From an uncultured Chloroflexia bacterium (GTDB lineage Bacteria; Chloroflexota; Limnocylindria; Limnocylindrales; CSP1-4): a stretch of 64,000 nt of DNA. The translations under genes and the position numbers were made by a program. The notes beneath the pieces are model-generated. The model ran no database searches. It was given only the letters and a program-made list of their open reading frames with translations, and was not told where the DNA came from. The DNA is taken from positions 416,001 through 480,000 of the forward strand of contig CAWFXA010000001.1 of the NCBI GenBank assembly GCA_963819655.1, in the 5' to 3' direction. Shown one piece after another: positions 23,286-62,368 of this stretch (its first letter is position 1; each line of letters begins with the position of its first letter).

Positions 23286-24512
23286 CTACGGCCCCAGCGT
23301 CGGTCGGAACGAGACCGAGTCCAGCCAGGTCGTGACATCGGACCGACCGAGATCGACCTCGAGAACGGCGTTCTGGTCCGTCCCGGAAGCGATGATCGGG
23401 AAGGTGATCGGTGCCCACGCAGGGCCGACCGTCGCGGTCCGGGCGACGTAGGAATTCCCTGCCGTCGATGTGATTCGCACGCGGATGTCGCGTGCAGTCT
23501 CGGAACGCATCCACAGTGTGAGCAGGTAATGACGGCCCACCTCGATACGCATGCCCGGCTGGCGCAGCGAGATCCCGGCGTAGGCGGCACTGCCCACCGT
23601 GATGTCGACGACGGCTGCGGTCGTGCCCGCCGCCGGGGCAGTGGTGTCGGCGGCGAGCGACGCCTGAGCGCCCAGCCCGACGAACAGCGCCCACGGCGTC
23701 CCGACGCCGGTCTCGAAGCCACCGTTCGTGACCTGCTCACCCGGCGCCGGCGATGGCTCCGGCGGGATCGGACCACCGGACGGCGGAGGCGATCCGACGG
23801 GTGGGGCCGGCGTGACCGAAGCGGGCGGCTCGCTCGATGGCGGCGGGGCTGACGACGGCGGCGGCGGGGCGGTAGACGGTGGCGCACTCGGTGGCGCGGG
23901 GCTCGGCGAAACGACAGGTGTCGGCGGCGGCGCGACTGCGAGCGCATCGAGCTCGGCCTGCAATGGTCCGAGCTCGGCGATCATTATCACGATGAGGCCG
24001 GCGCCGGCGCGATAGACGGCGTCGTTCTGCACCGATGCGGCGAGCGTCTCGGCCGCCAAATCGCCCATCGACTTGTACAACGCCGCCAGCTTGCCTCCAG
24101 GCTCGTTCTCGCCCAGCGCGCCACCCAGCCCCGCCACGTACTCGGACCCGAGGTTGACCCAGGTGTTCACCTGACGGATAAGTGAGACGACCTCGTTCGT
24201 CCGGAGCGTCGACCGGTCGAGCTCACGCTGCAACCCGAGGCCGATCCCAGCGAGACGCTCATTCACGCCTAGCAGGAGCTTGACGGTGCCAGGGTCGACC
24301 AGTGGCTTGGGCGAGGCCGTCGCGGGCGCGAGCGACAGCGTGGGACCAGGGGATCCCGAGCCCGAGGGCGATGCCGGAGGGACCGCGAAGGCCGTCGTGC
24401 CGAGCACCGCGAGGACGATGACCGCGAGGACGGTCCCGACGATCTCAGGTCCGGGTGGCCAGGTCCGCCTCGGCGCAGGGGTCAGCTCCGGGGCCCGCTC
24501 CGGAGCCGTCAC
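23286..24512 (-). CDS. membrane-anchored protein with Pro/Ser linker and C-terminal carbohydrate-binding (CBM4/9-like) domain
   Basis: N-terminal TM, helical region, PPPS linker, then VTNGGFETG..PW...WLDSVSF. Confidence 0.75.
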   Translation of the reverse strand: MTAPERAPELTPAPRRTWPPGPEIVGTVLAVIVLAVLGTTAFAVPPASPSGSGSPGPTLSLAPATASPKPLVDPGTVKLLLGVNERLAGIGLGLQRELDRSTLRTNEVVSLIRQVNTWVNLGSEYVAGLGGALGENEPGGKLAALYKSMGDLAAETLAASVQNDAVYRAGAGLIVIMIAELGPLQAELDALAVAPPPTPVVSPSPAPPSAPPSTAPPPPSSAPPPSSEPPASVTPAPPVGSPPPSGGPIPPEPSPAPGEQVTNGGFETGVGTPWALFVGLGAQASLAADTTAPAAGTTAAVVDITVGSAAYAGISLRQPGMRIEVGRHYLLTLWMRSETARDIRVRITSTAGNSYVARTATVGPAWAPITFPIIASGTDQNAVLEVDLGRSDVTTWLDSVSFRPTLGP

Positions 24513-25351
24513 GAACCGGCGCCGGCGACCGGTGCCGCTAGAGCTAGCTCGAGATCGGCCGCCGGCATCCCGCCGATCGTCCGGAAGACGATCGCGAGCG
24601 AGGACTGACCCTCGCGGCCCGAGATGATCACCCGGTCGTCCATCGCCGTGACATCGAAATCGAGGACGGCTCCCTCGTGGCGGACCTTGAGCTCACCGGC
24701 ATCGACGGGACCGAACACGCGCAGCTGATCGCCATCGCGAGCGATGGCATAGCACGCACCGATCTCGAGGCCCGCGTTGCCCGAGATGTACACACCGGTG
24801 GAGAGGACCTCACCTGCGCTGATCTCCTCGGAGGTCGTCGCTGCGACGTAGTTGGAGGCCGTGAACGTCGGTCGGATGCCCAGCGACGTGGGAGACGCCA
24901 TCGGCCGAGTCGGCCAGTCGCGCGAGTCCCGACGCGTCGACCCGCGCGCACTCCCGATCGGAGTCGGTGCGACGGACGCCGCTGGCTGCCGATCGCTGTC
25001 GACCGGCGCGACCCTGGCGCCGAGCGTGCGGAATGCGACGGGCTCAGGCGCCGCAGTCGGCTGGCTCTCGCGCGGTGCCGGGCCAGGCTCCCCGATCGAC
25101 CCGAATGCCAGCGATGTCCCGCACCGATCGCACAACGACGCCCAGCCGTGGACCTCCGTATCGCACGTCGGGCAGCGTCCGGGTGGCGCGACGACAAGGA
25201 GGACAAAAGCGAGAGGGCCCGTGAGGGCGCCGAGCGCGAACCACACGGCGGGATTCCGCGCGCAGCGCGTCGCGTACCACCCCGCCAGCGGCGCCCCTAC
25301 GCCGGCCAGCAGGACCAGCACGATGGGGATGCCATCGAGAACGCCCTGCAC
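24509..25351 (-). CDS. membrane protein with zinc ribbon (CPTC...CDRC)
   Basis: GTG at 25351 with a GGAGGA RBS; two TMs (RNPAVWFALG..GPLA) followed by two CxxC. Confidence 0.7.
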   Translation of the reverse strand: MQGVLDGIPIVLVLLAGVGAPLAGWYATRCARNPAVWFALGALTGPLAFVLLVVAPPGRCPTCDTEVHGWASLCDRCGTSLAFGSIGEPGPAPRESQPTAAPEPVAFRTLGARVAPVDSDRQPAASVAPTPIGSARGSTRRDSRDWPTRPMASPTSLGIRPTFTASNYVAATTSEEISAGEVLSTGVYISGNAGLEIGACYAIARDGDQLRVFGPVDAGELKVRHEGAVLDFDVTAMDDRVIISGREGQSSLAIVFRTIGGMPAADLELALAAPVAGAGS

Positions 25352-25700
25352 GCTTCCTCCGGTGTGGTCGGACCGAGGCGGCCATGCTACCCGAGGTCCG
25401 ACAAAGACCGGGGATGGGGTCATGACTCGAGGCTCCGCCACACCGCCGATTGGTGCGGCGGTGCACCGGAAGACGCGTCTGCAATACCCCGCATGCGTCA
25501 ACCGGCCCGTAATCGCAAGTGTAATTGAGAGGTCTGGGCCTTACGATAGGGTCCTCGCGGCTGGTACTTTTAGATCAGCCAAGAGGCGCTGTCATCGGGT
25601 CCGTATCGGACTCATGTCGGTCCGACACTCATCCTGGGGAGGTCTGTCGTCGCGGGAAAGCCGGAGCACCGAGGCTTCGGCATGAAGGGGGAAATAGCGA

Positions 25701-27089
25701 ATGCGTGTCACCGTAGTCGGATTGGGCTACGTTGGGCTCGTCACGGGCGCCTGTCTAGCCGAGTGGGAGCACGACGTCACTGGCGTCGATGCGGACCCAC
25801 GTCGTTTGGCGACGTTGCGCGAAGGGCGCGTCCCATTCCACGAGCCGCGGCTCCCGGAACTGGTCGGCGACGGTGTCACCACCGGGCGCTTGAGCTTCAC
25901 CGACGACCTCAAGGCAGCCTCCGCGGCGGCCGATATGGTGATCGTCGCCGTGGGCACCCACGACGGGAATGGCGGCTGGCAGACCGACACGGTCCGCGGC
26001 GCACTCGCCGACATCGTCCCGGCCATGGCCGAGGGATCGACGCTGGTCGTCCGCTCGACGCTGCCGCCCGATTTCATCCGACAGCTGCCGGCGCTGGTCG
26101 CCAGCCGCCGGGCGACCGCCGGGCTGTCGCCGATCCCGGTGATGCTCAACCCGGAGTTCACCCGTGAGGGTCGGGCCGTCCGTGACTACCAGCAGCCCGA
26201 CCGGATCGTCCTCGGGGTCGTGAGCGACCCGGACGGCCACGGCGAGGCCGCTCTCCGCGAGCTGTATCACTCGGCGGCGGCACCGGTGATCGTCATGGGC
26301 GCCATCGACGCGGCGATCACGAAGCTCGGGGCGAACCTCTTCCTCGCGACGAAGATCAGCTTCGCGAACGAGCTCGCCGAGATCTGCGACGCATTCGGCG
26401 CCGACGTGTCCACGGTCGTCGACGGCATGTCCTATGACAGCCGGATCGGCGGATCCTTCCTGCGCGCCGGTGTCGGGTTCGGCGGCTCGTGCCTCCCGAA
26501 CCAGGTCGCGATGACGATCCGCACGGCCGCCCAGGCCGGGGTGGACACGCCGCTGCTGAGCGCCGTCGACGAGGTCAACCATCGCCGCCGCAGCCAGGTC
26601 GTCGAGCGCGCCGCCTCGCTGCTCGAGGGCACGGTGCGAGGTCGCCGCGTCGCCCTCCTCGGCCTGACGTTCAAGCCCGATACCGACGACCTGCGTGACG
26701 CGCCGGCACTGACGATCGCGACCGAGATGATCGAGCAGGGTGCCTCGGTCGTCGCCTATGACCCGATGCCGTCCGCTCGCGAGCGCTCCGCCGTCCTGGT
26801 GCCAGGGCTGGAGGTCGTGCCTGCGGCCGCCGATGCTCTCCGCGGCGCCGACGTCGCCGTGCTCGTCACCGAGTGGCCGGAATTCGTCGACCTCGATTGG
26901 GCGGTCGCTGGAATGACCATGAGCCGCCGCATCGTCATCGATGGTCGCAATGTGCTGACCGCTGAGCGGCTGTCGGCTGACGGCTTCACGTACTCGTCGT
27001 TCGGCCGCGGAACCGTCGTGCCGGACATGGCTGCGGAAGGCGCCTCTGCCAAGGCCCGTGTCGCTTCGCTGCAGTGGGGCCGCGGGTGA
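25701..27089 (+). CDS. ugd: UDP-glucose 6-dehydrogenase
   Basis: GLGYVG, NPEF, KISFANE, GFGGSCLP, GLTFKPDTDDLR. Confidence 0.92.
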   Translation: MRVTVVGLGYVGLVTGACLAEWEHDVTGVDADPRRLATLREGRVPFHEPRLPELVGDGVTTGRLSFTDDLKAASAAADMVIVAVGTHDGNGGWQTDTVRGALADIVPAMAEGSTLVVRSTLPPDFIRQLPALVASRRATAGLSPIPVMLNPEFTREGRAVRDYQQPDRIVLGVVSDPDGHGEAALRELYHSAAAPVIVMGAIDAAITKLGANLFLATKISFANELAEICDAFGADVSTVVDGMSYDSRIGGSFLRAGVGFGGSCLPNQVAMTIRTAAQAGVDTPLLSAVDEVNHRRRSQVVERAASLLEGTVRGRRVALLGLTFKPDTDDLRDAPALTIATEMIEQGASVVAYDPMPSARERSAVLVPGLEVVPAAADALRGADVAVLVTEWPEFVDLDWAVAGMTMSRRIVIDGRNVLTAERLSADGFTYSSFGRGTVVPDMAAEGASAKARVASLQWGRG

Positions 27090-27754
27090 CACCAGCACGA
27101 CGCCACCACCTGGTCGTCGCCCTGATCGCTGCGCTGGCGGGCGCCGGGATCGGACTGGAAGTCGCCCGCGCGGGCGTTGCCCTCCAGCCGAGCCTCGCCT
27201 GGTGGCTCGGCGTCATCGGGATCATCGCGCTGGTCCTGGTCCTGATCACGCCGCCGGAGGAGCAGGCCGCGGCCCCGACCGCGACGCCTGCGCGCGCCGG
27301 CTGGGCCGAGTTCCGGCGCGAGCTCCGTCGCTCACGCCGATCCGTCCGGCCGATGACGCTGCTCCGCCTGCCCGGACCGGTGAGCCACGAAGCCGCCGAA
27401 ATGGCCGATCTGGCCGGTCGATCCCGCAGGCTCCATGAACACCTGCGCCTCGTCGATCGCACGTGGGTCGATGACGGCAGCGTCTACGTGCTGCTCCCCG
27501 AATCGCCGCGGGCGGCCGCCGACGCCCTCCTCGGCCGGCTCCGGGGCGTCGTTCCGGATCTCATCGCAGATGACGTCAGGATGGCGACGTTCCCCGACGA
27601 CGGGCTGACGAGCGGTGCGCTGATCTCCGCTGTCCACGGCGCGTCGTTGAGCGAGGTTCCGAGGCCGATCCGCGCGGCGCTCGCGGAGGACGATGCCGAG
27701 CTGCTTGGACCCGACGACGTCGAGCCGCTGCCTGAGACCGCGTCGAGATCATGA
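27086..27754 (+). CDS. 2-TM protein with degenerate GGDEF domain retaining the RxxD I-site (PelD-like c-di-GMP receptor)
   Basis: RRELRRSRRSVRPMTLL...LRLVD-RTWVDDGSV-YVLLPES...LLGRLR...ATFPDDG follows the GGDEF-fold pattern without GG(D/E)EF. Confidence 0.7.
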   Translation: MTPARRHHLVVALIAALAGAGIGLEVARAGVALQPSLAWWLGVIGIIALVLVLITPPEEQAAAPTATPARAGWAEFRRELRRSRRSVRPMTLLRLPGPVSHEAAEMADLAGRSRRLHEHLRLVDRTWVDDGSVYVLLPESPRAAADALLGRLRGVVPDLIADDVRMATFPDDGLTSGALISAVHGASLSEVPRPIRAALAEDDAELLGPDDVEPLPETASRS

Positions 27755-28380
27755 CCCGCTCGCCCGGCCAGGTCCGAACGCCCCGCGGATACGCGGCCAC
27801 GAAGCGCATGATCGACCTCGGCGTCTGTCTCATCGCCCTGCCGATCCTGCTGCCGGTCGGGCTGCTCTGCGCCCTTCTGATCCGGCTCGAGTCGCCCGGC
27901 CCGATCCTGTTCGCTCAGCAGCGGACCGGCCAGCACGGCGTCCGGTTCCCGATGTGGAAGTTCCGGACCATGGTCCAGAACGCCGAGGAGCTCAAGGCGT
28001 CGCTCCAGCACCTGAATATCCTGCCCGCGCCCGATTTCAAGATCCCGAACGATCCGCGGGTGACGCGCGTCGGCAAGTTCCTGCGCAAGACGAGCCTCGA
28101 CGAGCTGCCTCAGCTCCTCAATGTGATGCGCGGCCAGATGTCGATCGTGGGGCCGCGTCCGACCTCGTTCGCGGCGAGCACCTACGACCTCTGGCACTCA
28201 GAGCGTCTCGAGGTCGTGCCCGGCATCACCGGCCTGTGGCAGGTCAAGGGCCGCGGGACGATGACCTTCGACGAGCGCCTCCGGCTCGATATCGAGTACA
28301 TCGAGAGCCGATCGACAGGCAACGACCTGAAGCTGATGGCGCAGACCGCCATGGCGGTCTTCAAGGGGTCGGGCGTCTAG
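27751..28380 (+). CDS. priming sugar-phosphate transferase (Bac_transf family)
   Basis: KRMIDL, SPGPILF, KFRTM, DPRVTRVGKFLRKTSLDELPQLLNV, VGPRP, PGITGLWQV. Confidence 0.96.
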   Translation: MTRSPGQVRTPRGYAATKRMIDLGVCLIALPILLPVGLLCALLIRLESPGPILFAQQRTGQHGVRFPMWKFRTMVQNAEELKASLQHLNILPAPDFKIPNDPRVTRVGKFLRKTSLDELPQLLNVMRGQMSIVGPRPTSFAASTYDLWHSERLEVVPGITGLWQVKGRGTMTFDERLRLDIEYIESRSTGNDLKLMAQTAMAVFKGSGV

Positions 28381-28385
28381 GACCG

Positions 28386-28676: not shown

Positions 28677-29628
28677 TCACCGTTGCGGAGCGACCGCGCC
28701 GCGCCGGCCTAGATGCCAGGCGACCTGGCGCGCCAGACCATCTGACGGCTCGACCTGCGGCTCATAGCCGAGGGCGGCCCGTGCACGACCCACGTCGGCG
28801 CTCGTGTGCCGCTGATCGCCCGGTCGCACAGGCTCCCGGTGGATGATCGGCTCGACGCCGACGTGTCCCGCGATCAGCCCGATCGCATCGTTGAGCGAGA
28901 TCGTCCGCCCACCGCCGATGTTGTAGATCCCGCCGACCGCGCCCTGTTCGAGCGCCCGGATCGTGCCGTTGACCGCGTCATCGATGTACGTGTTCGAGCG
29001 CGTCTGCTCACCATCGCCGAAGACCGTGATGGGCTCACGATCGAGCATCGCCTCGATGAACCGGTGGTACGCCATGTCCGGACGCTGGCGCGGCCCGTAG
29101 ATCGAGAAGTAGCGGATGATCGTGGCCGGGAAGCCGCTCAACGCGACGTGCGCCAGGACGAGCTTCTCAGCGGCCAGCTTGGTGATCCCGTAGGGCGAGG
29201 AGGGCTCGAGCGCCCGGTCCTCGTTCCCGACCGCCTCGAGGCCGTACACCGACGACGTCGAGGCCACGACGAACCGCCGGACGCCGGGCGCGCTGGGCCG
29301 CCTCGATCAGGCGGTTCGTGGCGAGGATGTTGCAGGACGTGTATAGCTCGAGGTCCGTCCAGCTGCGCATGAGGCCGGCCATCGCGGCCTCGTGGATGAC
29401 GGCATCGGCGCCGTCGAGCCACGGGTCGAGGTCGTCGGTCCGGAGATCGACCTCGCCGAACCGGTAGCCGGCCGCGCCCGCGATCGGCGCCAGGTTGGCT
29501 TCCTTCATCGACCGCGGGTAGTACGGGATGAAGGCGTCGAGCCCGACCACCTCGTGACCGGCGGCGACCAGCGCCTCGGCGAGGGTGGATCCGATGAAGC
29601 CGGCCGCGCCGGTCACGACGATCCTCAT
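28677..29628 (-). CDS. NAD-dependent epimerase/dehydratase (UDP-glucuronate 4-epimerase-like); +1 frameshift near 29287
   Basis: MRIVVTGAAGFIG in frame 29167; ASTSSVYG, YGITK and YGPRQRPDMA in frame 28677. Confidence 0.9.
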
Positions 29629-31724: not shown

Positions 31725-32796
31725 TCAGTCGGGCGAGCGGCGCGCGTCCAGACCGGCGGCCCACGCGAGCTGGGCGCGGATGAGGGGAACGCCGGCGCGA
31801 CCGCCGACGTTGATCCGGCGCAGGCGCAGCCGGTCGACCCGGCGCAGGTCGTTGCCTCCCCGGTCGGTGGTCATCGCGATATCCATGCCGGCCTCGAGCG
31901 CCGCGGTGACTGCCGCGCCGCCGTGCGCACCACTCGGGTAGGCAAGGACACGCGGGATCGCCGCGAGCGGGCCGATCTCCCGCTCCAGGTCGGCGTGAGA
32001 GCCCGCGATCTCCTCGATGGCCGTCTCGAGTGGGACGCGGTCGAGCAACGGATGGCGGCGCGTGTGGGGCGCGAGGGTCACGCCGTCGCGGGCCAGCGCT
32101 CGAAGGTCATCCCAACCGAGGACGGCCGGACTCGCTCGGAACGGTCGGGGCGTGATGGCCGCCCTCTGGCGTTCCATCGCGAGCTCCCAGCTCCTCGACG
32201 ATCCGGTCGACCTGGCGCATCGCCTCATCGTGGTCGAGTGTCTTGAGCCAGTCCCGGATGGTCGCGACGGTCCCGCGCGCATGCTCCGCGCCGACCGGTA
32301 ATGGGCCGTCGGGCGTGGCGATCGGCGCTGGGCCCGGCGCCCGTTGGACCGCGACCCACAGTCGATCCCACCAGAACGCGGTTGATGGATCGGTGGCGGC
32401 GCCTGTCGCGACGAACATCGTGGCCGGCACGGACGCTGCACGCAGCACCGGCCAGGCATGTGTGGCGAAGTCGCGATAGCCGTCATCGAACGTCACGAGG
32501 ACCGCGCGCCGCGGGAGGCTGGCGGGATCGTCCAGCGACGCGAGGACGTCCGGCAGCGATACCGGGTCGAACTGGCGGGCCACCATCGCGATCTGGGCCG
32601 CGAACGACGCGGGCGTGGCAGAGATCAGGCTCGGCATCAGATCCGGTCGGGCGGCGGGGTCGTCGACGCGGTGGTAGGTCAGGATCGTCAGGACGCCACG
32701 CGCACGTGGGATCGCGCGGTCGAGGATCCCCGCCGCTGCACCTGCCACGGGACCGCGCGTCGCGGCCGCGACCACTCGACGCAGCCTGTCAGCCAC
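31725..32796 (-). CDS. polysaccharide deacetylase (CE4/NodB); +1 frameshift near 32187
   Basis: LTYHRV, VTFDDGY, FWWD in one frame; LGWDDL, HTRRHP, AYPSG in the next frame. Confidence 0.88.
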
Positions 32797-35867: not shown

Positions 35868-36095
35868 CCGCCGTCGTGCGGCAGTCCCCATCGCTCGAGA
35901 ACGTCATTCATCCAGCAAGAACGTCCTCGGCGTCGGGGGACAGTACAGCACGGGGCCGTGGCGGCGCGGTCGTGTCACGCGACCGATCCGGCGTCCTTGG
36001 GACTGCAAGGTCTGCCGACAGGCAAGGGGTGTACGATGCCCTGAACGCCCACCGGAGAGACCCGGTCGGTCGTGTGGGGGAGAGCGCGCATTACC

Positions 36096-50305: not shown

Positions 50306-50596
50306 GTCCGCGACAGTCTACGGTCGAGCGCGGCGGGGCTCATTCCGCTGCCGTGATGTGGGGACGCACGCGTTGCCCCGACGCACCGAATGGAAGCGGT
50401 GACTGGCCGCAACGGGGTGACAGGGGCGTTGATCGGGTGCAAACTCCCTGTTGACAAAGGTTGCAGGGGCCTTGTCCCCTCCCGCGCTCACCGCGGGCCG
50501 TCAGCCGCTTCACCCGTCACCCACCGATCGCTCGTCCCGGTCGGTCCGCCGTTCGTTCGTCGCATGTCCTGCGACGTCCAGGTAGGAAGGAGCACC

Positions 50597-54597: not shown

Positions 54598-56255
54598 CGT
54601 CGACCGACCCGGATGTGGCCGAAGGCCGCATTGAGGATGGTCGCTGCGGCGATGATGACGGCGAGGGCGTACGACGCGTAGATGAACTCGCGCCGGACGG
54701 GTGGGCGGTCCGGCGTCGCCGCGGACTGGGGAGCCGGCAACGAGCCCGAAACGGCGGATTGCACCTCGTAGATCTGGATGATGGGCGTTTCGATCGTCGT
54801 CCCGGACGCCGCGCCCGACAACGTCTGGACGTGCACGAGGCGGCCGTCGTAGCGACGCACGAGCTCCATGAGCTTGTCCGAGAAATGCGACGTCCGGGCG
54901 GCCGAGAACGCATCCCACACGAGGTAGCGGAACTCGCCCGTGCGGACGCTGAGATCTGCGTTGCGGATCGGCTCGTACGACGGATTCCGCTTCAACGGGT
55001 CAGGGCTCACGGACAACGCCCGGGTCGTTCGATGCCCGTAGAACTGGAGGATGTTGCCCATCGATGGACCGATCGTCATGAGCCGCGCCGACGCCGGCAA
55101 GTTCGTGTCGATCCACTGGCCCGCCTCGCGCCCTCCGGACACGCCCCCTCCCCCGGCCAGCACCTGGCCGGTCGCCGGGCCGAGGATCGTGAACGCAGAT
55201 TGGACGGCGAGTGACGCAGCGACGATCAGGACGGCGATGGCGCGCGGCTGACGGACGAGCTTCGGGACCCAGCGAGGCGCCTCGGGCACGCGCCGCGGAC
55301 GCCAGTCCACGAGCAACCGCGCCGCGAGGATGGCCACCACCGGCGCCGCCGGGAGGAGGTATTGGAACCCTTTCGTCGGCCACAGCTCGAAGAACGTGAC
55401 CGGGACAAAGACCCACGCGAGCAGGAGCCGGAGGCGCCAGTCGGCGTTCGAGCGGAATACCCACAGGCTGACCAGGGCGACGAGGAGGAGAAGCAGGCCG
55501 ACGGCCTGGGGGACCACGGTCGGATAGAAGAGGAGGTCGTGGTTGGGACGGCGGAGGAGCTGCCACACGAAATACTGCTGCGCCGTGCTCGCGCCACCTC
55601 CACCGGCGAGCGCCAGCGACAACGGGAAGCACGCGATGACCAGACCCATCGTCAGCATCGCGATCGCGAGATGGCGGAGCCGGACGAAGAGGTCGGGAAC
55701 CAACGCGAGGAACGCGTAGGTGGCAGCGATGAACACGATGGCCGTTTCCTTCGACAGGAATGCGAGCCCCAGGACGGCGCCTGCGGCGTACAGCCAGGCG
55801 TACCGATTCCCCTTTCCGAAGCGCGCAAGGCAGTACAACGTGAGCGTCGTCAGGAAAGTCAACGGCCCGTCGAGCAGGAACTGTCGCGTCACGATGACGT
55901 GGTAGGGCATCACCGCTATGAACAGCGCGGCCACAAGTCCGACCCAACGCCCGTACAGCAGAGACCCAAGCAGGTAGACCAGGACGATCGTCGCGAGGCC
56001 GATGATCGTCGCCGTGACCCGCGCCACTATGTCGCTGCCGTCGATGCTGAACGCGAGCGCCAGCGTCGTTTGGACCAGCAGCGGGTGCGCCCGGAAGATC
56101 GGGAAGAACGGCGCGAGCACGGTGTCGCCGGCGATCGACGCAGCCTGCCCCGAGTAGACGGCTTCATCGGAGTTCATCCCGACCGCGGTGAGGCCATACA
56201 GCCGCATGACGGCCGCGACCGCGACGATCAGGAACGGAGCGGCCCGACCGATCAC
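54594..56255 (-). CDS. GT-C glycosyltransferase family 39 (PMT/ArnT-like)
   Basis: NSDEAVY, HPLL, AFLSKET, QYLLP; multiple TMs. Confidence 0.88.
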   Translation of the reverse strand: MIGRAAPFLIVAVAAVMRLYGLTAVGMNSDEAVYSGQAASIAGDTVLAPFFPIFRAHPLLVQTTLALAFSIDGSDIVARVTATIIGLATIVLVYLLGSLLYGRWVGLVAALFIAVMPYHVIVTRQFLLDGPLTFLTTLTLYCLARFGKGNRYAWLYAAGAVLGLAFLSKETAIVFIAATYAFLALVPDLFVRLRHLAIAMLTMGLVIACFPLSLALAGGGGASTAQQYFVWQLLRRPNHDLLFYPTVVPQAVGLLLLLVALVSLWVFRSNADWRLRLLLAWVFVPVTFFELWPTKGFQYLLPAAPVVAILAARLLVDWRPRRVPEAPRWVPKLVRQPRAIAVLIVAASLAVQSAFTILGPATGQVLAGGGGVSGGREAGQWIDTNLPASARLMTIGPSMGNILQFYGHRTTRALSVSPDPLKRNPSYEPIRNADLSVRTGEFRYLVWDAFSAARTSHFSDKLMELVRRYDGRLVHVQTLSGAASGTTIETPIIQIYEVQSAVSGSLPAPQSAATPDRPPVRREFIYASYALAVIIAAATILNAAFGHIRVGRR

Positions 56256-56284: not shown

Positions 56285-59200
56285 TTAGTCGAACGTGACG
56301 ACGAGTTGCGGTCGGTTGCTGACTGTGGCCTCCCGTGAGGCCACCCCGAGACCATTGCTGGACTGGGCGACGAGCACGAAGCTGTACGTCCCGTCGCCGT
56401 TGACGACGGTGGTGACGGGGTACTCGACGAACGTGTTCTTGGAGACGCTGCCGAGGTCGCCCACGACGGTGCCAGCGGCGGGCTGGTTATTCCAGGTCAG
56501 CGTCGATTCGGTCCAGGCGCTCGATGTCGTCGCGAGCTGCGGAGCGTTCGGCGTGCTGTCGGTCACCCACAGCCGGACGACGGCGCTCTTGACCGTGCCG
56601 GTGATGCCCGTGGCCACGAACTTGAGGTACCCGCGCTGGGCGGGCGACGTGTCAGCGAAGATGTTGGTGCCGGTCCCGAAGTTGCTGTTGCCGCTCCCCG
56701 CCGCCGTGTAGGTGTCCTCGACCGCCACGAACGCGATCATGGTGGGTGTCGTGACGCTGGCTGGGGTACTCGGGGCGGACTGGTTCGCCAGATCCCTGGC
56801 CACGATCCGGTAGCTGTAGGTCGTACTCGGAGCGACGGTCGCGTCGGGGTAGTTGAGGGTCGTCCCCGAGACCGACGCGATGACCGTGCCGTCGCGCACG
56901 ACGTCGTAGCCGGTGACCGCCACGTTGTCGGTCGAGGCCGACCACGACACGTCCACGAGCGAGGTCGACGCGGCAACCGCGCTGACCCCCGTCGGCACGC
57001 TCGGCGCCTCGGTGTCCGGCGGCCCGGGCAGGTACGTGACGACGAGCTGAGGTCGGTTGGTCGCGGCGGTGACCTGACGCGAGGCCACCCCGTGGCCATT
57101 GCTGGATTGTGGAACAAGCACGAAGCTGTAGGTGCCGTTGCCGCTGATGGCGACGGTGGCGGGATACTCGATGAAGGTGTTCCTTGAGACGCTGCCGAGG
57201 TCGCTCACGACGGTTCCCGGCGCGGGCTGGTTGTTCCAGGTCAGGGCGGTTTCGGTCCAGGTGCTGGTCGTCGTGGCGAGCTGCGCGGCGTTCGACGTGC
57301 TGTCGGTCACCCACAGGCGGATCACTGCGTTCTGGACCGTGCCGCTGATACCGGTGGTCACGAACTTGAGGTACCCGCGCTGGGCGGGTGAGGTGTCAGC
57401 GAAGATGTTGGTGGCGCTCCCGTAGTTGGTGTTGCCGGTCCCCGCGTCGGTGTAGGTATCCGCGACAGCCACGAAGGCCACCGTGACGGGTACAGCCGGG
57501 GTCGTGACGCTCACGGCCGGGCTGCTCGGGGCGGACGGGTTGAGGCCGTCGGTGGCGACGATCTGGTAGCCATAGGTCGTGCTCGGGGTGACCGTCGCGT
57601 CGGGATAGGTCAGGGTCGTCCCCGAGACCGACGCGATGACCGTGCCGTCGCGCACGACGTCGTAGCCGGTGACCGCCACGTTGTCGGTCGAGGCCGACCA
57701 CGACACGTCCACCAGGGTCGGCGAGGCGGCCACGGCGCTGACCCCGGTCGGCACGCTGGGCGGCTCGGTATCGGACGCGGCCGGGGTCGTGACGAGGGAC
57801 GCGACGCTCGGAGCGGACTGGTTGCCGGCCAGATCCTTGGCCACGACCGTGTAGCTGTAAGTGGTCGACGCGGCGACCGTCGCGTCGGGGTAGGTCAGAG
57901 TGGTGTCGGACACCGACGCGATGACGACGTCGTCGCGCAGGACGTCGTAGCCGGTCACCCCGACGTTGTCGGTCGACGCCGTCCACGACACGTTGACGAG
58001 CGACGACGAGGCGGCCACCGCGCTGACGTCGGTCGGCACGCTCGGATCCTCGATATCGCCCGCGGCCGGCGTGGTGACGACCGACGCGATGCTCGGAGCG
58101 GACTGGTTGCCGGCCAGATCCTTGGCCACGACCGTGTAGCTGTACGTGGTCGACGCGGCGACCGTCGCGTCGGGGTAGGTCACGGTGGTCCCGGACACCG
58201 ACGCGATGATGACGTCGTCGCGCAGGACGTCGTAGCCGGTCACCCCGACGTTGTCGGTCGACGCCGTCCACGACACGTCGACGAGCGACGACGAGGCGGC
58301 CACCGCGCTGACGTCGGTCGGCACGCTCGGATCCTCGGTGTCGGGCGTTGGTTCGCCGACGTCGTAGGTCTGGACGTCGAAGCTCTGGCCGAGCGAGTTG
58401 ATCGGCTCCACGGTCACCTGGCTGCCGTCGACTGTCACCTTGAGGAAATGGATCACCTCGGCCGGCGAGCTCGGCGGCGTCGCCGCGCCGCAGGCGTTGC
58501 CGGTACTCGAGCTGTTGGACCAGCCGATCGCGTACGCGTCGATGGCCAGACACGGATCTTCGCCGACGGACTGCGTCTTCGCGCCGCCACCGCCGGTGAG
58601 GTAGGCGACCGTGCCGCCCGGATCCGCGAAGTTGCGCTGGTAGATGTGCGCGTGGCCGTTGAAGGCAAGCTTGACGTCGTACTGGTTGAGGAGGCCTTGC
58701 AATGAGTTCGGGCCGTGGAGGAAGGTGTCCGACGTCTCGTGCTTCTGGTCGGAATACAGCGGGTAGTGGAACGCAGCCATCTTGATCTGGTTCGGGTGGG
58801 CAGCGAGGTCCGCCTGGAGCCACTGGTACTGGGCGCTGCTCGGCGTCCATTGGTAGGCGGCGTCGACCTCGTACGGGTCGCTGTTGACGCCACCGTTCGA
58901 GTCGGACCACGCGGCCTGGAGGACGTAGATCCGCGTCCGCCCGGCATCGAAGGCATACCAGGTGCTCGGGAGGACCAGGGACTGCGGTCCCGAGCAGACA
59001 GCAGTACGTATCGCGCTGGTAGCGTCCGTTCGATTCGCTGACGGCGCGGTCCTGCGGCCAGTTCGTGAGATGGGGATGCGCCATGTCGTTGCGCAGGAAG
59101 CCGTGGTTGCCGATCGCCGGGTACATCGGGATGGATGAGCCGGCCACGGTCCAGAACTGCGGACCGAAGATCGCACTCAGCTCGGGGCCGACCTCGACGA

Positions 59201-60426
59201 GGTCGCCGTAGTTGCCCTGGCTGCCCGACGCGTAGGCGTTGTCACCGGTGGTCACGGCGAAGCTCACCCCACTCTGGGCGATGCGTTGCATGAGGTTCGC
59301 CTGGTCCGGGTTGCTCGACGACTCGTCGACCTGGCCCCAATCGCCGAGCACGGCGAACGAGAAGGGGGTCGTGGAACCGGTCGGCAGCAGCGTCCGGAAC
59401 CTCGGGCTGGGGTCGCTGCCCAGAAGGTCCGCACCGTCCAGGCGTGACCCGATAGCAGTACGCCTGATCCGGGAGGAGCGTGAGGTTGGCCTCCCATTGG
59501 TAGAGCGGGACGGAGTTCACCGTGATCGGTGTCCGCGCGCCCGCGACCGAGGTCGTCGGGGAGCACGATCCGTCGCCGGCGACAGCGCCCCACACGGCTG
59601 CCGCGATCGTGGACGACCGATCCGTCGCCCAGTTGATCGTCGCGTAGCCGGTCACGGCATCGGCTGAGTTCACGACGTCGGTGAGGTACGGATAGCGACG
59701 CAGCGACGCGGAGAACGCAGCGGTCGACAACGACGCCGTCGCGGCGTCGGTCCCGGACGACCTGGTTCCCGGGGAGGCCGCGGTCGCGCCGGCCGTCGTC
59801 GTCGTCTCGACCGGAGCCTCGTCCGATCGCCCCGACCGTAGGCCGGTGATGTCGACGGCCTCGACGGTGTAGATGCCCCGCGCCGAGTCCTTGCGCATGT
59901 CGATGAACGCGAGGGTGCCCGAGTTGACGGTCGCGACGTGCCGGTTACCGCGCCGGATCACGTACGCCGAGATGTCGGAATCGTCGTTGGAGCTCTGCCA
60001 GTCGACGAGCACGGAGCCGTCGGCCATCGCCACCGCATGGACATCCTCGGGAACGGTCGGTCGGTTGTGGTCCTGGCGTTCGGGAGGGCTGGGTGTCTTC
60101 ACACGGATCGCTGCCGTGGCTGCGGTCCCGCCAGGGCTGACCGCCTCGACGATATAGGTGTACCGGCGCCCTGCCAGGACCGTGGAGTCGTTGAAGGTGA
60201 ACGTGGCCGGGTTGACGGACGCTCGGACGGCGCCATCGCGGCGAACGTTGTACGAGGTGACGTCGGGGCTGCCGGGCTCCCACTCGAGGACGACCTCGGC
60301 GGACGTGATCGCCACCGCTCGGACGATCGGGGGCGCGCTCGGCGGCGTCGCGGCAGCAGCGGTCGGGATCGCCACCGCGACGGGCAGGGCGAGCAGAAAC
60401 GCGGCGACACGACGCCCGGCTTTCAT
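56285..60426 (-). CDS. large secreted metallophosphoesterase (purple acid phosphatase-like) with FN3 repeats and DNRLRE-like domains; +1 frameshifts at ~59441 and ~58985
   Basis: Signal peptide MKAGRRVAAFLL; motifs GDWG, GDNAY, GNHG, HYP, GHAH across three frames; repeated WTASTDNVGVTGY; 2x YLKF..VRLWV. Confidence 0.82.
56290..58340 (-). repeat. intragenic FN3 repeats (~285 bp period) and duplicated DNRLRE-like units
   Basis: Near-identical units at about 57790-58050 and 58075-58340, plus related copies at about 57500-57770 and 56750-57015. Confidence 0.85.
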
Positions 60427-60660
60427 CGGTCGAGAACGCCTGGTGACAGGACCAGGTGCTCGGCTGGCCGGCATGTGGCCGGGCACCAGCCGAGAGGGTG
60501 CACTAGGCGCGGTCTCCAACCCCCTTCGTGCATCGAGTGTCGTGGGCCATGGGTACTGCGTCAATGGGGTACCGATGACCCACGGGGCATCGATGCGGCG
60601 CGCACGCAGCGCGCTCGCGAACTTGCGGTGCACTCGCGCACCGAACCGGCTCGGATACCA

Positions 60661-62368
60661 TCAGTCGGCGCCCGCATCCCGCACGGCCGGGACGAGCTCC
60701 AGGGCCGCATCGCCGAGGATGATCTCGGGGATGAAGGGACGTTCCAGTGGCACGGGAACGGGTGTCGGCGCGGACGGCTGGTCGACGGTGCCCAGGTCCG
60801 ACCGGGACGAGGACAGGCCGCCTGATGATGGCTGGGAGTCGCTCTGCCCACTCGTGGCCAGGCACGCTCAGGTGCCATGACCGAGCGTCCGCGATCGCCG
60901 CTCCAAGAAGCTCGGCCTCGCGCTTCCTGAGGGCGGCATAGTCGTCGCCATTGATCCGGATGTGCGGTGCGAACAGGCTGAACGGCGGGAACCCGTAGGC
61001 GTCGTCCGTGTTCTCGATCAACCGTCGAACGGTCTCGTCGTCGGACAGCCGATCCTGTCGTTCCTCGCCGTGCTCCATGAGCACGATGGTGCGGATCGGG
61101 GCATGTCCTCCGACGGCACATTCGAAGAGCGAATCGATGCGATGCTTCGGCGGCGGGACCAGCGCCTGGACGATGGCGTTCATGGTCATGATCGGCAGGT
61201 TCCGCTTCCCGAGCGACTGGCCGGCCCGACGTCCCGACTTCGAGTGGAGCCGGCTCTGGATCGCGAGTGCCGCGCGATCGAAGGTCGTCAGCCGGCCGTC
61301 CTTCGCCACCCGCATCGTGTGGAACGAGAGCGTCATCGGCTTCGGGTAGCTGATCGCTTCACCGTGCGGGCCGACGATCGTCATGTCGTCCGACAGGAAC
61401 CGGTACTCACCGGTTCGCACGAGGGTGATGACCGTGCTCGTCTTGCCCGTGTCGGTCTGCGCCGACAGCAGCGTCGACCCGTGCTCGTCGGCGATCGCGG
61501 CCGAGTGCAGGAGCACGTAGCCCTTGGAGACGAGCAGGAACCGGAGCAGCGCCTCGACGATGTTCGTGTACACCACGTGCGGCGAGATGGCCAGCACGGG
61601 GCTCACCTTGATCTCGATCGGGTCGCCCATGCGGAGCGCGAAGTTCGCTGCCAGCGGACCGAGGTGCTCGCGATACACGAGATCGTCGCCGGTGTCCTCG
61701 AACTTCACGCGTCGCGTGGGCCGGGGCGAGACGAATCCGACGCGGATCCGGATGTCCGGTTTGCTGACGCGGTCGGTCCGGAAATAGGTGAGCTCGCGAA
61801 GCACCACCGCTGACTCGATCGAGAGGATCCCGCCGATGTCGTACGCATAGCGTGCCGCGGCCTCCACCGTTCGGGCAGGCACGGCGACGGTCCCCTCGGC
61901 TGACGCCGCCGCGACTGGCGATCCGCCCCACAGCCAGCGGTGCGAGACGGCGAGGCGAACCACGAAGAATGCGACGAGCGTGACCAGGTTCGAGAGCGCG
62001 TAGCTGACGTGGACGAACTCGGTCAGCATCCAGAGGAACGGGATCCGTAGCACCAGCAAGGCGGCGTTCAGCCCGAGGAAGCCGATGTACCGGTCGCGCA
62101 GTGAGCTGGTCGGTCGGCGTGCGTCGAAGGCCCACCGCTCGATCCACAGGAAGTTCCAGGTCGATGACCCGACCGTGGCGATCGCGGCGGACACGATGTA
62201 GAAGACGGCCAGCAGCTCGGTGACCGCGATCAGCAATACCTGGTTGACGGCGACGCCCGACGCGCCGACGACCGTGAACCTGACCCACTCACGGAAGTGG
62301 GTGCGATCGGTCGACAGGACCCCAAGCCCGCCGGCTCCCCCGGTGCGGGCATCATCAGTTCTATTCAT
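60661..62368 (-). CDS. GtrA-family domain fused to HPr-kinase-like P-loop domain; +1 frameshift near 60792
   Basis: N-terminal RFTVVGASGVAVN...WNF..ERWAF; C-terminal LLHSAA...LSAQTDTGKTS...FLSDD. Removing one G gives TVDQPSAP...DAGAD and a stop at 60661. Confidence 0.8.

Follow-up and report, generated by a model that had tools for sequence, protein, structure and literature searches.

Does the 39-kb segment 23286..62368 encode a distinct surface-glycan system, and does c-di-GMP control it? The window, the whole 64,000-nucleotide stretch that was analysed, comes from an uncultured Chloroflexota bacterium of soil or sediment whose relatives are labelled Candidatus Limnocylindrales. Genes were called from open reading frames and third-position GC and were annotated with Pfam and NCBIfam. 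The segment is a genuine surface-polysaccharide gene cluster of the Wzx/Wzy type. It is mostly ordinary in kind, and its unusual part is a small undescribed sensor-like protein (g04) adjoining the priming enzyme. The borders of the locus hold because unrelated metabolic genes lie on both flanks. The best explanation of the whole, to which a probability of about 0.62 is given, is a lineage-specific modular Wzx/Wzy pathway with c-di-GMP-gated priming, a riboswitch, polymer decoration, a variable add-on and frameshifts that arose as assembly errors.

Glycan assembly and putative decoration genes

The genes up to the polymerase are as follows (position, strand, assignment, evidence).

g01, 23286..24512, -, surface protein with N-terminal hydrophobic segment (residues 24-42), Pro/Ser-rich linker and CBM_4_9 (Pfam, E 7e-7, 30.1 bits, cut-off 25.9)
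g02, 24509..25351, -, membrane protein with two hydrophobic segments and a zinc-ribbon-like motif (weak DZR_2/DZR, below cut-off)
g03, 25701..27089, +, ugd, UDP-glucose 6-dehydrogenase (three UDPG_MGDP_dh domains, E 3e-43 to 1e-29; NCBIfam TIGR03026, 385 bits, cut-off 189.8)
g04, 27074..27754, +, mini degenerate-GGDEF membrane protein (predicted fold, alignment to true GGDEF proteins)
g05, 27751..28380, +, small monotopic phosphoglycosyl transferase (PGT), priming (Bac_transf, E 1.6e-63)
g06, 28677..29628, -, NAD-dependent sugar epimerase/dehydratase, frameshifted (Pfam Epimerase)
g07, 29625..31562, -, secreted or anchored beta-propeller protein with weak C-terminal ConA/laminin-G-like region (domain model, Foldseek)
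g08, 31725..32796, -, polysaccharide deacetylase, frameshifted (Polysacc_deac_1)
g09, 32789..34015, -, ATP-grasp ligase (ATPgrasp_Ter, E 2e-12, 47.3 bits, cut-off 29.1)
g10, 34021..34713, -, dTMP-kinase-like P-loop protein (Thymidylate_kin, 34.7 bits, cut-off 27; TIGR00041 below cut-off)
g11, 34707..35822, -, HprK/FomB-like P-loop protein (FomB family, E 1e-8, and HprK_rel_A, both below cut-off)
g12, 36072..39589, +, beta-propeller, Big_9, SWM-repeat and CBM96 protein, two +1 frameshifts (Pfam)
g13, 39658..39930, +, 90-aa protein with three hydrophobic segments, function unassigned (conserved in G021 and G180; no family match in Pfam or NCBIfam)
g14, 40066..41703, +, polysaccharide co-polymerase (Wzz and GNVR) fused to a degenerate MinD/BY-kinase-like P-loop (Pfam, NCBIfam)
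g15, 41726..42724, +, GalE, UDP-glucose 4-epimerase (TIGR01179, 383.2 bits, cut-off 262.3)
g16, 42667..44028, +, GT4 glycosyltransferase (Glycos_transf_1, E 3e-37)
g17, 44028..45245, +, membrane GT2 glycosyltransferase, one N-terminal and three C-terminal hydrophobic segments (Glycos_transf_2, E 2e-24; top NCBIfam model PgaC_IcaA, far under cut-off)
g18, 45242..46774, +, Wzy-type polymerase/O-antigen-ligase family membrane protein, about 12 hydrophobic segments (Wzy_C, E 2e-19, 70.3 bits, cut-off 31.7)

The first-pass gene list holds in nearly every entry. Pfam and NCBIfam confirmed ugd, the priming transferase, the epimerases, the GT2 and GT4 enzymes and the Wzy-like gene of the first-pass annotation. 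Its Wzc-like gene was right in that Wzz and GNVR are fused to a P-loop in g14. However, the Walker A motif is GTGSDGASS, which has no lysine, and the C-terminal tyrosine cluster is missing; the same holds in G021 and G024. By homology, nucleotide sugars are supplied by Ugd, GalE and the second epimerase, the lipid carrier is primed by the small PGT, and the repeat unit is extended by the GT4 and GT2 enzymes. A MOP flippase moves the unit, and the Wzy_C protein polymerises it with the co-polymerase whose ATPase domain is degenerate. The predicted product is an acidic, uronic-acid-containing surface or extracellular heteropolysaccharide.

As claimed earlier, neither Wzx nor Wza lies in the window, but the system is not Wzx-less. 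A Wzx-type flippase (Polysacc_synt; PF01943 and PF13440 matches) is encoded at G000:C1:483492-485192, which is 5.1 kb to the right of the locus and outside the window. Its orthologs, with 40-48% identity, lie less than 20 kb from g04 in 8 of 10 distant genomes. From these gene positions, the flippase is displaced out of the locus in this genus and sits inside it elsewhere. Wzy was seen in three of the ten distant 40-kb views, several of which end at the GT2 gene, and a single-protein search found it in 6 of 40 relatives. Poly_export and Omp85 were not found in the whole genome (91% complete). The host is apparently monoderm, in agreement with the proposed Wzy-type glycan locus in a monoderm lineage.

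The polymer would be decorated by the deacetylase, the ATP-grasp ligase and the P-loop kinases. The deacetylase resembles the N-terminal domain of PgaB, and PDB relatives of the ligase are CPSase-like proteins, glutathione synthase and cyanophycin synthase. Three P-loop kinase-like domains had been proposed beside the ligase and are indeed present, one dTMP-kinase-like and two HprK/FomB-like. Atlas neighbours of g11 carry the name 'putative Hpr(Ser) kinase/phosphatase'. The two beta-propeller proteins, g07 and g12, are paralogous as predicted, sharing an N-terminal domain of about 365 aa (30% identity, E 9e-50). The model of the propeller domain has a pLDDT of 88.9 and a pTM of 0.90. Top Foldseek matches of g07 included a PL25 ulvan lyase, 5uam (E 2.6e-9, TMq 0.64), together with PL24, GH145, PLL lectins and sialidases. 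The propeller and lyase-like proteins may trim or bind the polymer extracellularly. Tethered enzymes may remodel the decorated polymer, as their domain content and their single hydrophobic segments at the N terminus reasonably suggest.

Candidate c-di-GMP control of priming and of a lyase-like gene

At its two ends, the g04 gene overlaps the stop of ugd and the start of the PGT gene, and it would be translationally coupled between the two. It consists of two hydrophobic helices and a GGDEF-fold domain of about 120 aa. No match to g04 was found in Pfam, NCBIfam or PDB sequences. The AlphaFold2 model is of moderate confidence (pLDDT 72), and all of its top ~30 Foldseek matches in the PDB were GGDEF domains (best 4urg_A, E 4.9e-5, TMt 0.60). 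The g04 profile matches GGDEF/AGDEF proteins of the canonical type (E 2e-6 to 9e-6), and the alignment places RLVD-x5-DGSVY over RxxD-x5-GGDEF. Fold and alignment thus support the degenerate-GGDEF membrane protein of the first-pass annotation. The inhibitory-site (I-site) position holds RLVD (residues 125-128), and GG[DE]EF is replaced by DGSVY. The cyclase motif is lost, and the GTP-binding segment would be gone as well, with the RxxD I-site retained. All 25 class members have this RxxD. The family comprises 442 representative clusters at E<=1e-10. Among 149 representatives with <50% mutual identity, R is found in 146 and D in 145, and the GGDEF positions drift freely. Of 29 loci, 24 show the order ugd-g04-PGT and 25 the pair g04-PGT. 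One of these 25 (L038) belongs to the unpublished genome G131, and the remaining four loci are true GGDEF enzymes.

In PelD and BcsE, a degenerate GGDEF domain binds c-di-GMP by way of its RxxD (PMC8461298). The protein g04 is likewise a degenerate GGDEF protein with the RxxD kept. In Myxococcus, a priming transferase is directly activated by a signalling protein, and post-translational regulation of Wzx/Wzy pathways is described as poorly understood, both in PMC12802240. The protein g04 may bind c-di-GMP and then switch on or recruit the priming transferase. The first committed step of the pathway would thereby be gated by the second messenger. We infer such control of priming, but the conserved RxxD could serve protein contacts instead.

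A rival reading makes g04 a c-di-GMP-blind accessory subunit, a scaffold in the membrane that would stabilise or dimerise the small PGT much as the N-terminal domains of large PGTs do, with its GGDEF ancestry a relic. In NCBIfam, the PGT aligns to the WbaP/WcaJ/EpsZ models over their catalytic C-terminal part only; it has neither the membrane nor the cytoplasmic N-terminal domains of the WbaP-type enzymes. The coupled g04 would add a cytoplasmic domain and two membrane helices, and its family has diverged too far to be matched by any GGDEF HMM. However, conservation in the family is highest at the two I-site residues and the tryptophan after them (145-146 of 149), and the former active-site positions drift, as would be expected if a ligand site had been retained. 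The genome also encodes 18 GGDEF domains above cut-off and two c-di-GMP riboswitches. A scaffold blind to c-di-GMP is considered doubtful, and c-di-GMP-dependent priming is preferred.

A second candidate level of control lies beside the lyase-like genes.

g19, 46747..48561, -, lyase-like paralog A with N-terminal hydrophobic segment (Alginate_lyase, 46.9 bits, cut-off 22.2)
aptamer, 48653..48729, -, c-di-GMP-I riboswitch (RF03167, 64.6 bits, E 5.6e-13; RF01051, 64 bits, gathering score 35)
g20, 48962..50305, -, lyase-like paralog B (Alginate_lyase, 40.1 bits, cut-off 22.2)
g21, 50429..51721, +, lyase-like paralog C (paralogy to g20, E 1.5e-122; Pfam E 0.05 at best)

Both the riboswitch and the three lyase-like paralogs had been recognised at first pass and were upheld. 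The paralogs share 38-52% pairwise identity (g20 and g19, 41%; g20 and g21, 52%), and two of the three pass the Pfam Alginate_lyase threshold. The aptamer is of the canonical c-di-GMP-I type despite the Rfam label "GGC". It is nearly invariant in G021 and G024 though the flanks diverge. The GTG start of g19 lies 91 nt after it, and this start and the Shine-Dalgarno sequence GGGAGGA are conserved in G021, G024 and G180. The 3' strand of the closing helix could pair instead with the start-codon region. This alternative pairing is kept in 4 of 4 species; covariation was seen in 1 of 24 predicted pairs with no compensatory changes, and the single-sequence fold was no better than shuffles (z -0.41). 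The riboswitch is probably an ON switch, and in this genus it would also control translation of one of the three secreted lyase-like paralogs. It stands beside the locus in four congeneric genomes, G000, G021, G024 and, by position, G180. It was found within 20 kb of g04 in none of five further genomes carrying the locus. Among the other 29 best-scoring riboswitch loci of the class, not one is followed by a locus protein. We infer two-level c-di-GMP control through g04 and the riboswitch, the latter layer being beside the locus only in the four congeneric genomes.

Conservation and modularity of the locus

Synteny was examined in ten distant relatives from two families of the class, in 40-kb views around the ugd/mini-GGDEF/PGT triad. 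The locus families co-occur around the triad in all ten, contrary to the absence of co-occurrence that would have spoken against the first-pass proposal. The propeller-lectin gene g07 has homologs there in 10/10, GT4 and the epimerase in 9/10 each, the co-polymerase in 8/10, GT2 in 7/10, and the deacetylase, HprK-like and lyase-like genes in 6/10 each. Homologs of g01 adjoin the triad in G180, G124 and G316, and g02 is kept beside ugd in G180, G124, G244 and G316. Searches and NCBIfam equivalogs, of which GalE alone scored above cut-off, yielded no characterised locus with the same gene set. The proposal of a distinct and possibly undescribed system is supported in part, but its 39 kb are not the single fixed unit once implied. 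The right part contains the following genes.

g22, 51830..52960, -, GH71/GH99-like protein with hydrophobic segments at both ends (Glyco_hydro_71, 50.2 bits, cut-off 34; Glyco_hydro_99, 36.4 bits, cut-off 33)
g23, 52957..54597, -, Big_3_5 Ig-like protein with C-terminal hydrophobic segments and a zinc ribbon (Pfam); start overlaps the g24 stop
g24, 54594..56255, -, GT-C glycosyltransferase of PMT_2/PMT type, the predicted GT39 (PMT_2, E 2.5e-21; PMT, 38.9 bits, cut-off 22.7)
g25, 56285..60426, -, large secreted protein with two +1 frameshifts: fn3 repeats, purple-acid-phosphatase-like metallophosphoesterase, fn3, two CBM96 (Pfam on three pieces)
g26, 60791..62368, -, GtrA-like membrane domain fused to an HprK-like P-loop domain (GtrA_DPMS_TM, E 1.3e-15; HprK_rel_A, E 3.8e-6, below cut-off)

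The GT-C block at 51.8-62.4 kb, of which g22, g23, g24 and g26 were labelled the accessory block, was seen in this genome and one sister only. The sister G024 lacks 35.8-40.0 kb, with the CBM96-repeat gene, and 51.8-63.0 kb, and keeps the rest. Homologs of the four labelled genes lie near the triad in 0/10 distant loci, and gene order around the triad differs between genera. By gene content, the locus is modular, and the GT-C/GtrA block would be a variable add-on for extracytoplasmic glycosylation.

The same observations also suit several neighbouring glycan systems, in which a conserved core EPS locus (about 25.7-46.8 kb) stands beside an unrelated extracytoplasmic glycosylation module (51.8-62.4 kb). 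That GT-C/GtrA/GH99-like/phosphoesterase-CBM96 module would modify proteins or another wall polymer, and the lyase-like and propeller genes would forage on foreign polysaccharides. The block has no GtrB-type polyprenyl-phosphate sugar synthase recognisable by Pfam, which fits such a division. However, the lyase-like and propeller genes stay by the biosynthetic genes across two families, which fits processing of the self-polymer better than foraging. Block and core also have paralogous domains in common: HprK-like in g26 (C-terminal part) and g11, and CBM96 in g25 and g12. Several neighbouring systems are considered rather unlikely, and one modular locus with an add-on is the favoured account.

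Frameshifts in four genes

Six frameshifts break g06, g08, g12 and g25. In g06, a +1 frameshift near 29283 leaves N and C halves that match Pfam Epimerase in different frames; in g08, the Polysacc_deac_1 matches are split over two frames near 32130. The +1 frameshifts of g12 (38390/38391 and 39519/39520) are an identical extra C in both copies of a 1129-bp tandem repeat (37332-38460 and 38461-39589). Those of g25 (near 58997 and 59420) are single-base insertions against G021. Compared with the sisters, all are single-base insertions bar one unclear site. Intact orthologs are present in G024 for g06 (316 aa) and in G021 for g08 (357 aa), g12 (1083 aa) and g25 (1335 aa).

If the frameshifts were real, the locus would be decaying in this strain, and the epimerase, the deacetylase, one propeller-CBM96 protein and the phosphoesterase-CBM96 protein would be pseudogenes. 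The six in 39 kb compare with none in rpoB and rpoC (8.2 kb, intact) and no more than one candidate in the 11 kb of flank, but the difference is not significant: about 2.9 would be expected in 19 kb, and 0-1 were seen. The same C in both repeat copies is not what random read error would produce; the insert lies, however, in a 469-bp stretch over which the copies match at 100%, where consensus polishing of the repeat would copy an error. Few-contig assemblies of the genus also carry their own frameshifts, G021 in its GT4 gene, and G015 has many in-frame stops. Two of the sites are covered by short-read contigs from near-identical strains (96-98% identity to the window). Decay is considered improbable. 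The six frameshifts are most likely long-read assembly errors, because the short-read contigs lack the extra base at both covered sites, 29283 (runs X1 and X2) and 38390 (run X1).

Gene content and assembly pathway of the locus

The genome under study comprises 3.49 Mb in three contigs, is 91% complete and has about 70% G+C. Because spurious ORFs fill such high-GC DNA (the window has 162 ORFs of at least 100 aa, many of them spurious), genes were picked by third-position GC and frame periodicity and then refined against the sister genomes G021 and G024. The gene list of the first-pass annotation, which was made from the sequence without searches, was borne out by Pfam and NCBIfam scans. Its borders, 23286 and 62368, are sound because the genes on both flanks are unrelated to the locus. 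The left flank holds MttB, a MacB-type ABC system, a two-component pair, acetyl-CoA synthetase, a BNR protein, MoaE and an O-methyltransferase, and the right flank holds enoyl-CoA hydratase. The MttB-family gene (trimethylamine methyltransferase-like, 6097-7698, minus strand) is full-length (E 4.5e-188) in a frame without internal stop, and is presumably a non-pyrrolysine member. The locus genes are transcribed in five blocks.

Transcription blocks of the locus (genes g01 to g26)
Block 1, minus strand: g02 to g01
Block 2, plus strand: ugd, the mini-GGDEF gene g04 (27074..27754) and the priming phosphoglycosyl transferase (PGT) gene
Block 3, minus strand: g11 to g06
Block 4, plus strand: g12 to the Wzy gene (g18)
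Block 5: g20, the riboswitch and g19 on the minus strand; g21 on the plus strand; g26 to g22 on the minus strand

The proposed paralogy of the lyase-like proteins and of the propeller proteins was upheld by pairwise comparison. The lyase-like paralogs A, B and C (g19, g20 and g21) share 38-52% pairwise identity, and the 645-aa protein g07 and the CBM96-repeat protein g12 have a common N-terminal domain of ~365 aa (30% identity, E 9e-50). The HprK-like domains of g11 and g26 are related as well (E 5e-5).

The small priming PGT, g05, matched Bac_transf with E 1.6e-63 and 213.9 bits (cut-off 27). For g18, which has about 12 hydrophobic segments and scored 70.3 bits against 31.7 for Wzy_C, we infer polymerase activity; the Wzy_C family also includes ligases. 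The earlier statement that no Wzx or Wza is recognisable in the window stood as far as the window goes, but a flippase is encoded 5.1 kb to the right of g26, at C1:483492-485192 (L018:3492-5192; Polysacc_synt 50.8 bits against 28.2), beyond genes for enoyl-CoA hydratase, ADP-forming acyl-CoA synthetase and acyl-CoA dehydrogenase. It is one of five PF01943 matches in the genome. The same displaced arrangement was found in G021 and G024. In eight of ten distant genomes a flippase ortholog (40-48% identity) lies in the 40-kb neighbourhood of g04, in several of them directly beside the HprK-like gene. Because of this flippase and its in-locus orthologs elsewhere, the predicted pathway is Wzx/Wzy-complete. 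The displacement in this genus looks like a small local rearrangement. A synthase-dependent pathway, considered from the absent Wzx, was dropped once the flippase was found. Poly_export (PF02563) and Omp85 were not found in the whole 91%-complete genome, which fits an envelope with a single membrane and the monoderm lineage named earlier.

The co-polymerase g14 scored 27.8 bits against 25.5 for Wzz and 38.5 against 27.7 for GNVR. The hallmarks of BY-kinases are an intact Walker A motif (GK[ST]) and a C-terminal tyrosine cluster. The P-loop of g14 reads GTGSDGASS in the genome under study and in G021 and GAGSDSASS in G024, so that the Walker A lysine is missing in all three species, and its tail has three scattered tyrosines and no cluster. 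It reached 45.7 bits against the TIGR01007 cut-off of 108. The label 'Wzc-like' is limited to architecture because the lysine and the tyrosine cluster are missing, and kinase activity is probably absent.

With the exception of GalE, no locus protein scored above an NCBIfam equivalog cut-off, and no account of such a locus in the Limnocylindria lineage was found in the literature on exopolysaccharide there. These results favour the proposal of a distinct, possibly undescribed system. The assembly core of the locus is of the ordinary kind. The observation made from the sequence was confirmed and its interpretation is partly supported.

The mini-GGDEF protein g04

In the window, g04 overlaps both neighbours, at its start with the ugd stop and at its stop with the PGT start. 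The protein had been described as a degenerate-GGDEF membrane protein. Pfam, NCBIfam and PDB profile searches with g04 gave no match, and the PF00990 GGDEF HMM did not match it at E<=0.05 or in the genome-wide scan. Nevertheless, its fold, the reach of its profile, its motif register and its conservation speak for the description. In the AlphaFold2 model, built with 22 homologs (pLDDT 72), an alpha/beta domain follows two N-terminal helices, and the model's best ~30 Foldseek matches in the PDB are all GGDEF domains (4urg_A, E 4.9e-5, TMt 0.60). Across 301 genomes of the class, the family profile gave 29 matches, spread over 13 of 57 genera; they fall in 15 of 91 genomes of family f1 and 13 of 103 of family f4, the genome under study not counted. 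At the weak end of these matches (E 2e-6 to 9e-6) stand four long proteins in which the GGDEF or AGDEF motif is canonical. In the joint alignment, R125-L-V-D128 of g04 followed by five residues and D-G-S-V-Y falls exactly on RxxD, five residues and GGDEF. The GG[DE]EF active-site motif is missing, with DGSVY in its place, and the segment aligned to the metal/GTP-binding DxDxFKxxND..GH..GD is deleted.

The RxxD motif is kept in all 25 family members of the class. A profile search of 1.84 billion representatives returned 812 proteins at E<=1e-3, of which 442 reach E<=1e-10; the family amounts to at least 442 clusters at 50% identity, with proteins of about 200 aa that are not seen by Pfam. Among the best 149 representatives the median length is 211 aa, and the arginine is kept in 146, the aspartate in 145 and the tryptophan after it in 145, whereas the former GGDEF-motif positions are variable. 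This pattern marks a cyclase-dead domain in which selection maintains the ligand pocket of the inhibitory site. According to a 2021 review (PMC8461298), PelD and BcsE show the same cyclase-dead pattern with a kept I-site. A pattern scan of genome contigs found g04 at 20 loci, in close relatives alone, and has little bearing on the taxonomic range. A 2,140-bp contig labelled 'Patescibacteria group bacterium' (L110) carries a g04 homolog that shares 72% identity with the query; the contig is probably mis-binned because all other g04 matches are from Chloroflexota.

The g04 gene is followed by a small PGT gene at 25 of 29 loci (L038, from the unpublished genome G131, is among the g04-PGT loci counted) and preceded by ugd at 24, in one orientation throughout. 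Because the genome scan found 18 GGDEF domains above cut-off, the organism clearly uses c-di-GMP. In the proposed mechanism, c-di-GMP would bind g04, and g04 would then activate or recruit the small PGT. The g04 family may form a new minimal 'I-site-only' class of c-di-GMP receptors that directly gates a small monotopic PGT, a reading to which we give a probability of roughly 0.4.

Like PelD and BcsE, the degenerate-GGDEF proteins YdaK of Bacillus and PssE of Listeria are c-di-GMP receptors of synthase-type EPS systems. Like receptors of the PelD/BcsE type, g04 is membrane-anchored or -associated, is encoded within an EPS operon, and has a GGDEF fold in which the catalytic motif is lost and the RxxD I-site is kept. 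Unlike PelD-type receptors, it is much smaller (226 aa, with a domain of ~120 aa that lacks the GTP-binding segment), has no GAF or other partner domain, is missed by the Pfam GGDEF model and adjoins a Wzx/Wzy priming transferase rather than a processive synthase.

A second comparison is with the Eps system of Myxococcus xanthus, in which the priming transferase EpsZ is activated by EpsW (PMC12802240, PMC7484181). The locus resembles Eps in its priming PGT, GT4/GT2, MOP flippase, Wzy_C polymerase and Wzz/GNVR co-polymerase. NCBIfam EpsZ, EpsE and EpsD are among its best matches, and the locus would share with Eps a signalling protein that works directly on the priming enzyme. In contrast, the locus scores far under all Eps equivalog cut-offs (226 against 400 for EpsE), its PGT is a small single-domain enzyme whereas that of Eps is a large monoPGT, and its proposed regulator is a membrane mini-GGDEF protein rather than a phosphorylated receiver domain. 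The locus also has no outer-membrane export protein, and its co-polymerase ATPase is without the Walker A lysine.

In the 2025 Myxococcus study (PMC12802240), the post-translational control of Wzx/Wzy pathways is called poorly understood and c-di-GMP control is described as typical of synthase-type systems; the word 'Wzy' is absent from the main text of PMC8461298. If the mechanism is true, gating by g04 would provide the first case of a c-di-GMP checkpoint acting on Wzx/Wzy priming, and the pairing of g04 with the PGT would add a new variation to the theme of post-translational control in these pathways. To our knowledge, the exopolysaccharide c-di-GMP receptors acting in post-translational control are all in synthase-type systems. 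The word 'first' is confined to the priming step because HfsJ, a glycosyltransferase of the Caulobacter holdfast pathway, reportedly binds c-di-GMP. The candidate switch is tiny, strongly conserved and I-site-only, lies between ugd and the priming transferase, and is directly testable. The host lineage is abundant and uncultured, and occurs in soil and freshwater. With its many unannotated members, the g04 family would lend itself to a Pfam-type model. This unannotated family is the main value of the locus, and the remainder is a useful, unsurprising catalogue of a Chloroflexota glycan cluster.

The riboswitch and the secreted enzymes

The aptamer at 48653-48729 (minus strand) scored 64.6 bits in cmscan against RF03167 (c-di-GMP-I-GGC, cut-off 59), and the GGC label wins the Rfam clan competition by 0.6 bit. 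The window reads CGCAAAGCC against the variant consensus ACGCGAAgCc, with A at the position of the G that sets the GGC consensus apart. We take this position to be the ligand-stacking A47 of the canonical class and to define the GGC variant. Because A stands there, the aptamer is read as an ordinary c-di-GMP-I aptamer and not as the GGC variant. The c-di-GMP-I riboswitch of the first-pass annotation is accordingly retained: the match to canonical RF01051 is full-length (model positions 1-87), scores 64 bits where the gathering score is 35, and has the conserved core of that family.

The aptamer is nearly invariant in G021 and G024, whereas the surrounding leader diverges. In G180, a further genome of the class, a riboswitch is present by position, 17 kb from its g04, and in five further locus-carrying genomes none was found within 20 kb of g04. 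Because of these five genomes, the riboswitch layer at the locus appears to be a recent, genus-level addition. In the bacterial class, 67 of 151 genomes have a c-di-GMP-I riboswitch, a tally that takes in the unpublished genome G102. Like others in the class, the locus aptamer precedes a gene for a secreted or surface protein, and among the best 30 riboswitch loci the window's own is the only one to precede a locus protein. The other downstream ORFs (27, from loci L050-L078) encode six Peptidase_MA_2 proteins, two subtilases, one methyltransferase and 18 proteins without family; the class riboswitches mostly precede such small family-less proteins (18/27). Closely spaced or tandem copies were seen in G008:C27 (22945 and 23448) and G068:C9 (87151 and 87991).

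A scan downstream of the aptamer detected no terminator, and single-sequence folds of aptamer plus leader were no better than shuffles. In the consensus fold of four leaders, the aptamer end (UGCCGA.GUC) pairs with GAC..GUGC, in the region where the GTG start lies. None of these pairs varies between the leaders, and no covariation support was found. Should this alternative pairing be real, the bound ligand would release the start codon and the riboswitch would act as an ON switch, a reading given roughly even odds. High c-di-GMP would then turn on lyase paralog A (g19). No report of a c-di-GMP-I riboswitch paired with a polysaccharide-lyase-like gene was found in the literature. A second c-di-GMP-I riboswitch lies about 28 kb beyond the window, at G000:C1:507980-508058 (plus strand; L019:7980-8058), with 60 bits for RF01051 and 65.8 bits for RF03167. 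It is just upstream of an OmpR-type response regulator gene (L019:8389-9210) and directly after a GAF-GGDEF-EAL gene, and another GGDEF-EAL gene is nearby.

Against Alginate_lyase (PF05426, gathering score 22.2), g19 scored 46.9 and g20 40.1 bits, and g21 was placed in the family by paralogy alone. A single-sequence PDB search gave no match with g20 and chance-level matches with a propeller protein and an HprK-like protein. The beta-propeller fold claimed earlier was confirmed by a model and its matches to solved structures. The model, from an alignment of 25 homologs, is all-beta with about 27 strands (pLDDT 88.9, pTM 0.90), and its best match is the PL25 ulvan lyase 5uam (E 2.6e-9, TMq 0.64, 12% identity). 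The PL24 lyase LOR107 is also among the best matches. GH145 enzymes, one of them in complex with glucuronic acid, score similarly, as do the PLL lectins of Photorhabdus and sialidases, and the modelled domain could be a lyase, a hydrolase or a lectin. C-terminal add-ons aside, no Pfam model covers it in the 120 homologs listed.

AlgL, PelA, BcsZ and PssZ are polymer-cleaving enzymes encoded in EPS operons. As with these and with PL24/PL25 and GH145, secreted lyase or hydrolase folds are found here among genes for a predicted uronic-acid-type polymer. Unlike those EPS-operon enzymes, the locus has five such genes (three alpha-toroid lyase-like, two beta-propeller), with likeness at the fold or Pfam level. 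The secreted enzymes would act on the cell's own polymer. Judging from ugd, the TviC/dehydratase-like epimerase and the lyase-type and GH145/PL25-like folds, this polymer would contain uronic acids. The deacetylase, ATP-grasp protein and kinases would add or remodel its substituents. A precedent is a Campylobacter capsule in which glucuronate is reportedly amidated by an ATP-grasp-type enzyme.

Reading frames and conservation across the class

The locus in G021 is collinear throughout, with 77-80% nucleotide identity. The segments 35.8-40.0 kb and 51.8-63.0 kb are missing in G024, and G020 has rearranged pieces of the locus. Compared with intact orthologs, four genes of the genome under study have broken frames: the epimerase gene (29283) and the deacetylase gene once each, and the CBM96-repeat gene (38390 and 39519) and the phosphoesterase-CBM96 gene (~58997 and ~59420) twice each. 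Five sites are single inserted bases, and the deacetylase site (~32130) is an ambiguous 5-nt difference. Both CBM96 sites have the same extra C, inside a block of 469 bp over which the two repeat copies show 100% identity. The 1129-bp tandem repeat of the CBM96 gene occupies 37332-38460 and 38461-39589 of the window; its 322- and 469-bp blocks are 100% identical and flank a centre of only about 60-70% identity, a pattern that could come from gene conversion or from repeat-collapsed polishing. In Logan contigs of public short-read runs (likeness of at least 90%), the informative sites were 29283 and 38390. One base fewer is present at 29283 in contigs of both runs, X1 and X2 (X2 contig of 1381 nt, 58 differences), and at 38390 in an X1 contig (531 nt, 12 differences). 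The rpoB and rpoC genes are intact, and at most one frameshift candidate was found in 11 kb of flank. For the six frameshifts, we put the odds of assembly error against real decay at about three to one.

The few-contig sister assemblies show frame errors or fusions of their own. G021 has its own GT4 frameshift, by which GT4 runs into GT2 as one 867-aa ORF (L010, ortholog of window 42667-45245), and its PMT_2 gene and the next, Ig-like gene form one 1087-aa ORF. At about 13671-13787 of the window, the N-terminus of acetyl-CoA synthetase matches G024 in two frames (residues 9-37 and 47-663), possibly a seventh frameshift or a difference of G024.

The first-pass annotation had made its proposal depend on the co-occurrence of these genes in other genomes. 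Matches at E<=1e-8 around g04 were tabulated in ten further genomes.

Locus families near g04 in ten further genomes
Propeller-lectin: 10/10
Second epimerase: 9/10
GT4: 9/10
dTMP-kinase-like (several weak): 8/10
Co-polymerase: 8/10
GT2: 7/10
Propeller-CBM96: 7/10
Deacetylase: 6/10
HprK-like: 6/10
Lyase-like: 6/10
ATP-grasp: 5/10
Wzy (several views end at the GT2 gene): 3/10
g22, g23, g24 and g26: 0/10

The core families do co-occur near g04, and on these matches a core set appears to be kept together across two families of the class. By single-protein search, Wzy was found in six of 40 relatives. The GT-C block (g22-g26) is accessory. It holds a GtrA domain and a PMT_2 GT-C enzyme, and no GtrB-type GT2 was recognised there; the sole GT2 of the locus is g17, whose best match is PgaC-like. 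Extracytoplasmic glycosylation of the GtrA/GtrB/GT-C type combines a GT-C transferase with a GtrA-like flippase and a synthase of polyprenyl-phosphate sugars. In f2/g2, a sister family of the same order, Wzy was found in 0 of 16, g04 in 0 of 12 and the riboswitch in 0 of 6. Its genomes are about 1.0-1.4 Mb at about 90% completeness, and the group appears strongly reduced beside its 3-Mb relatives.
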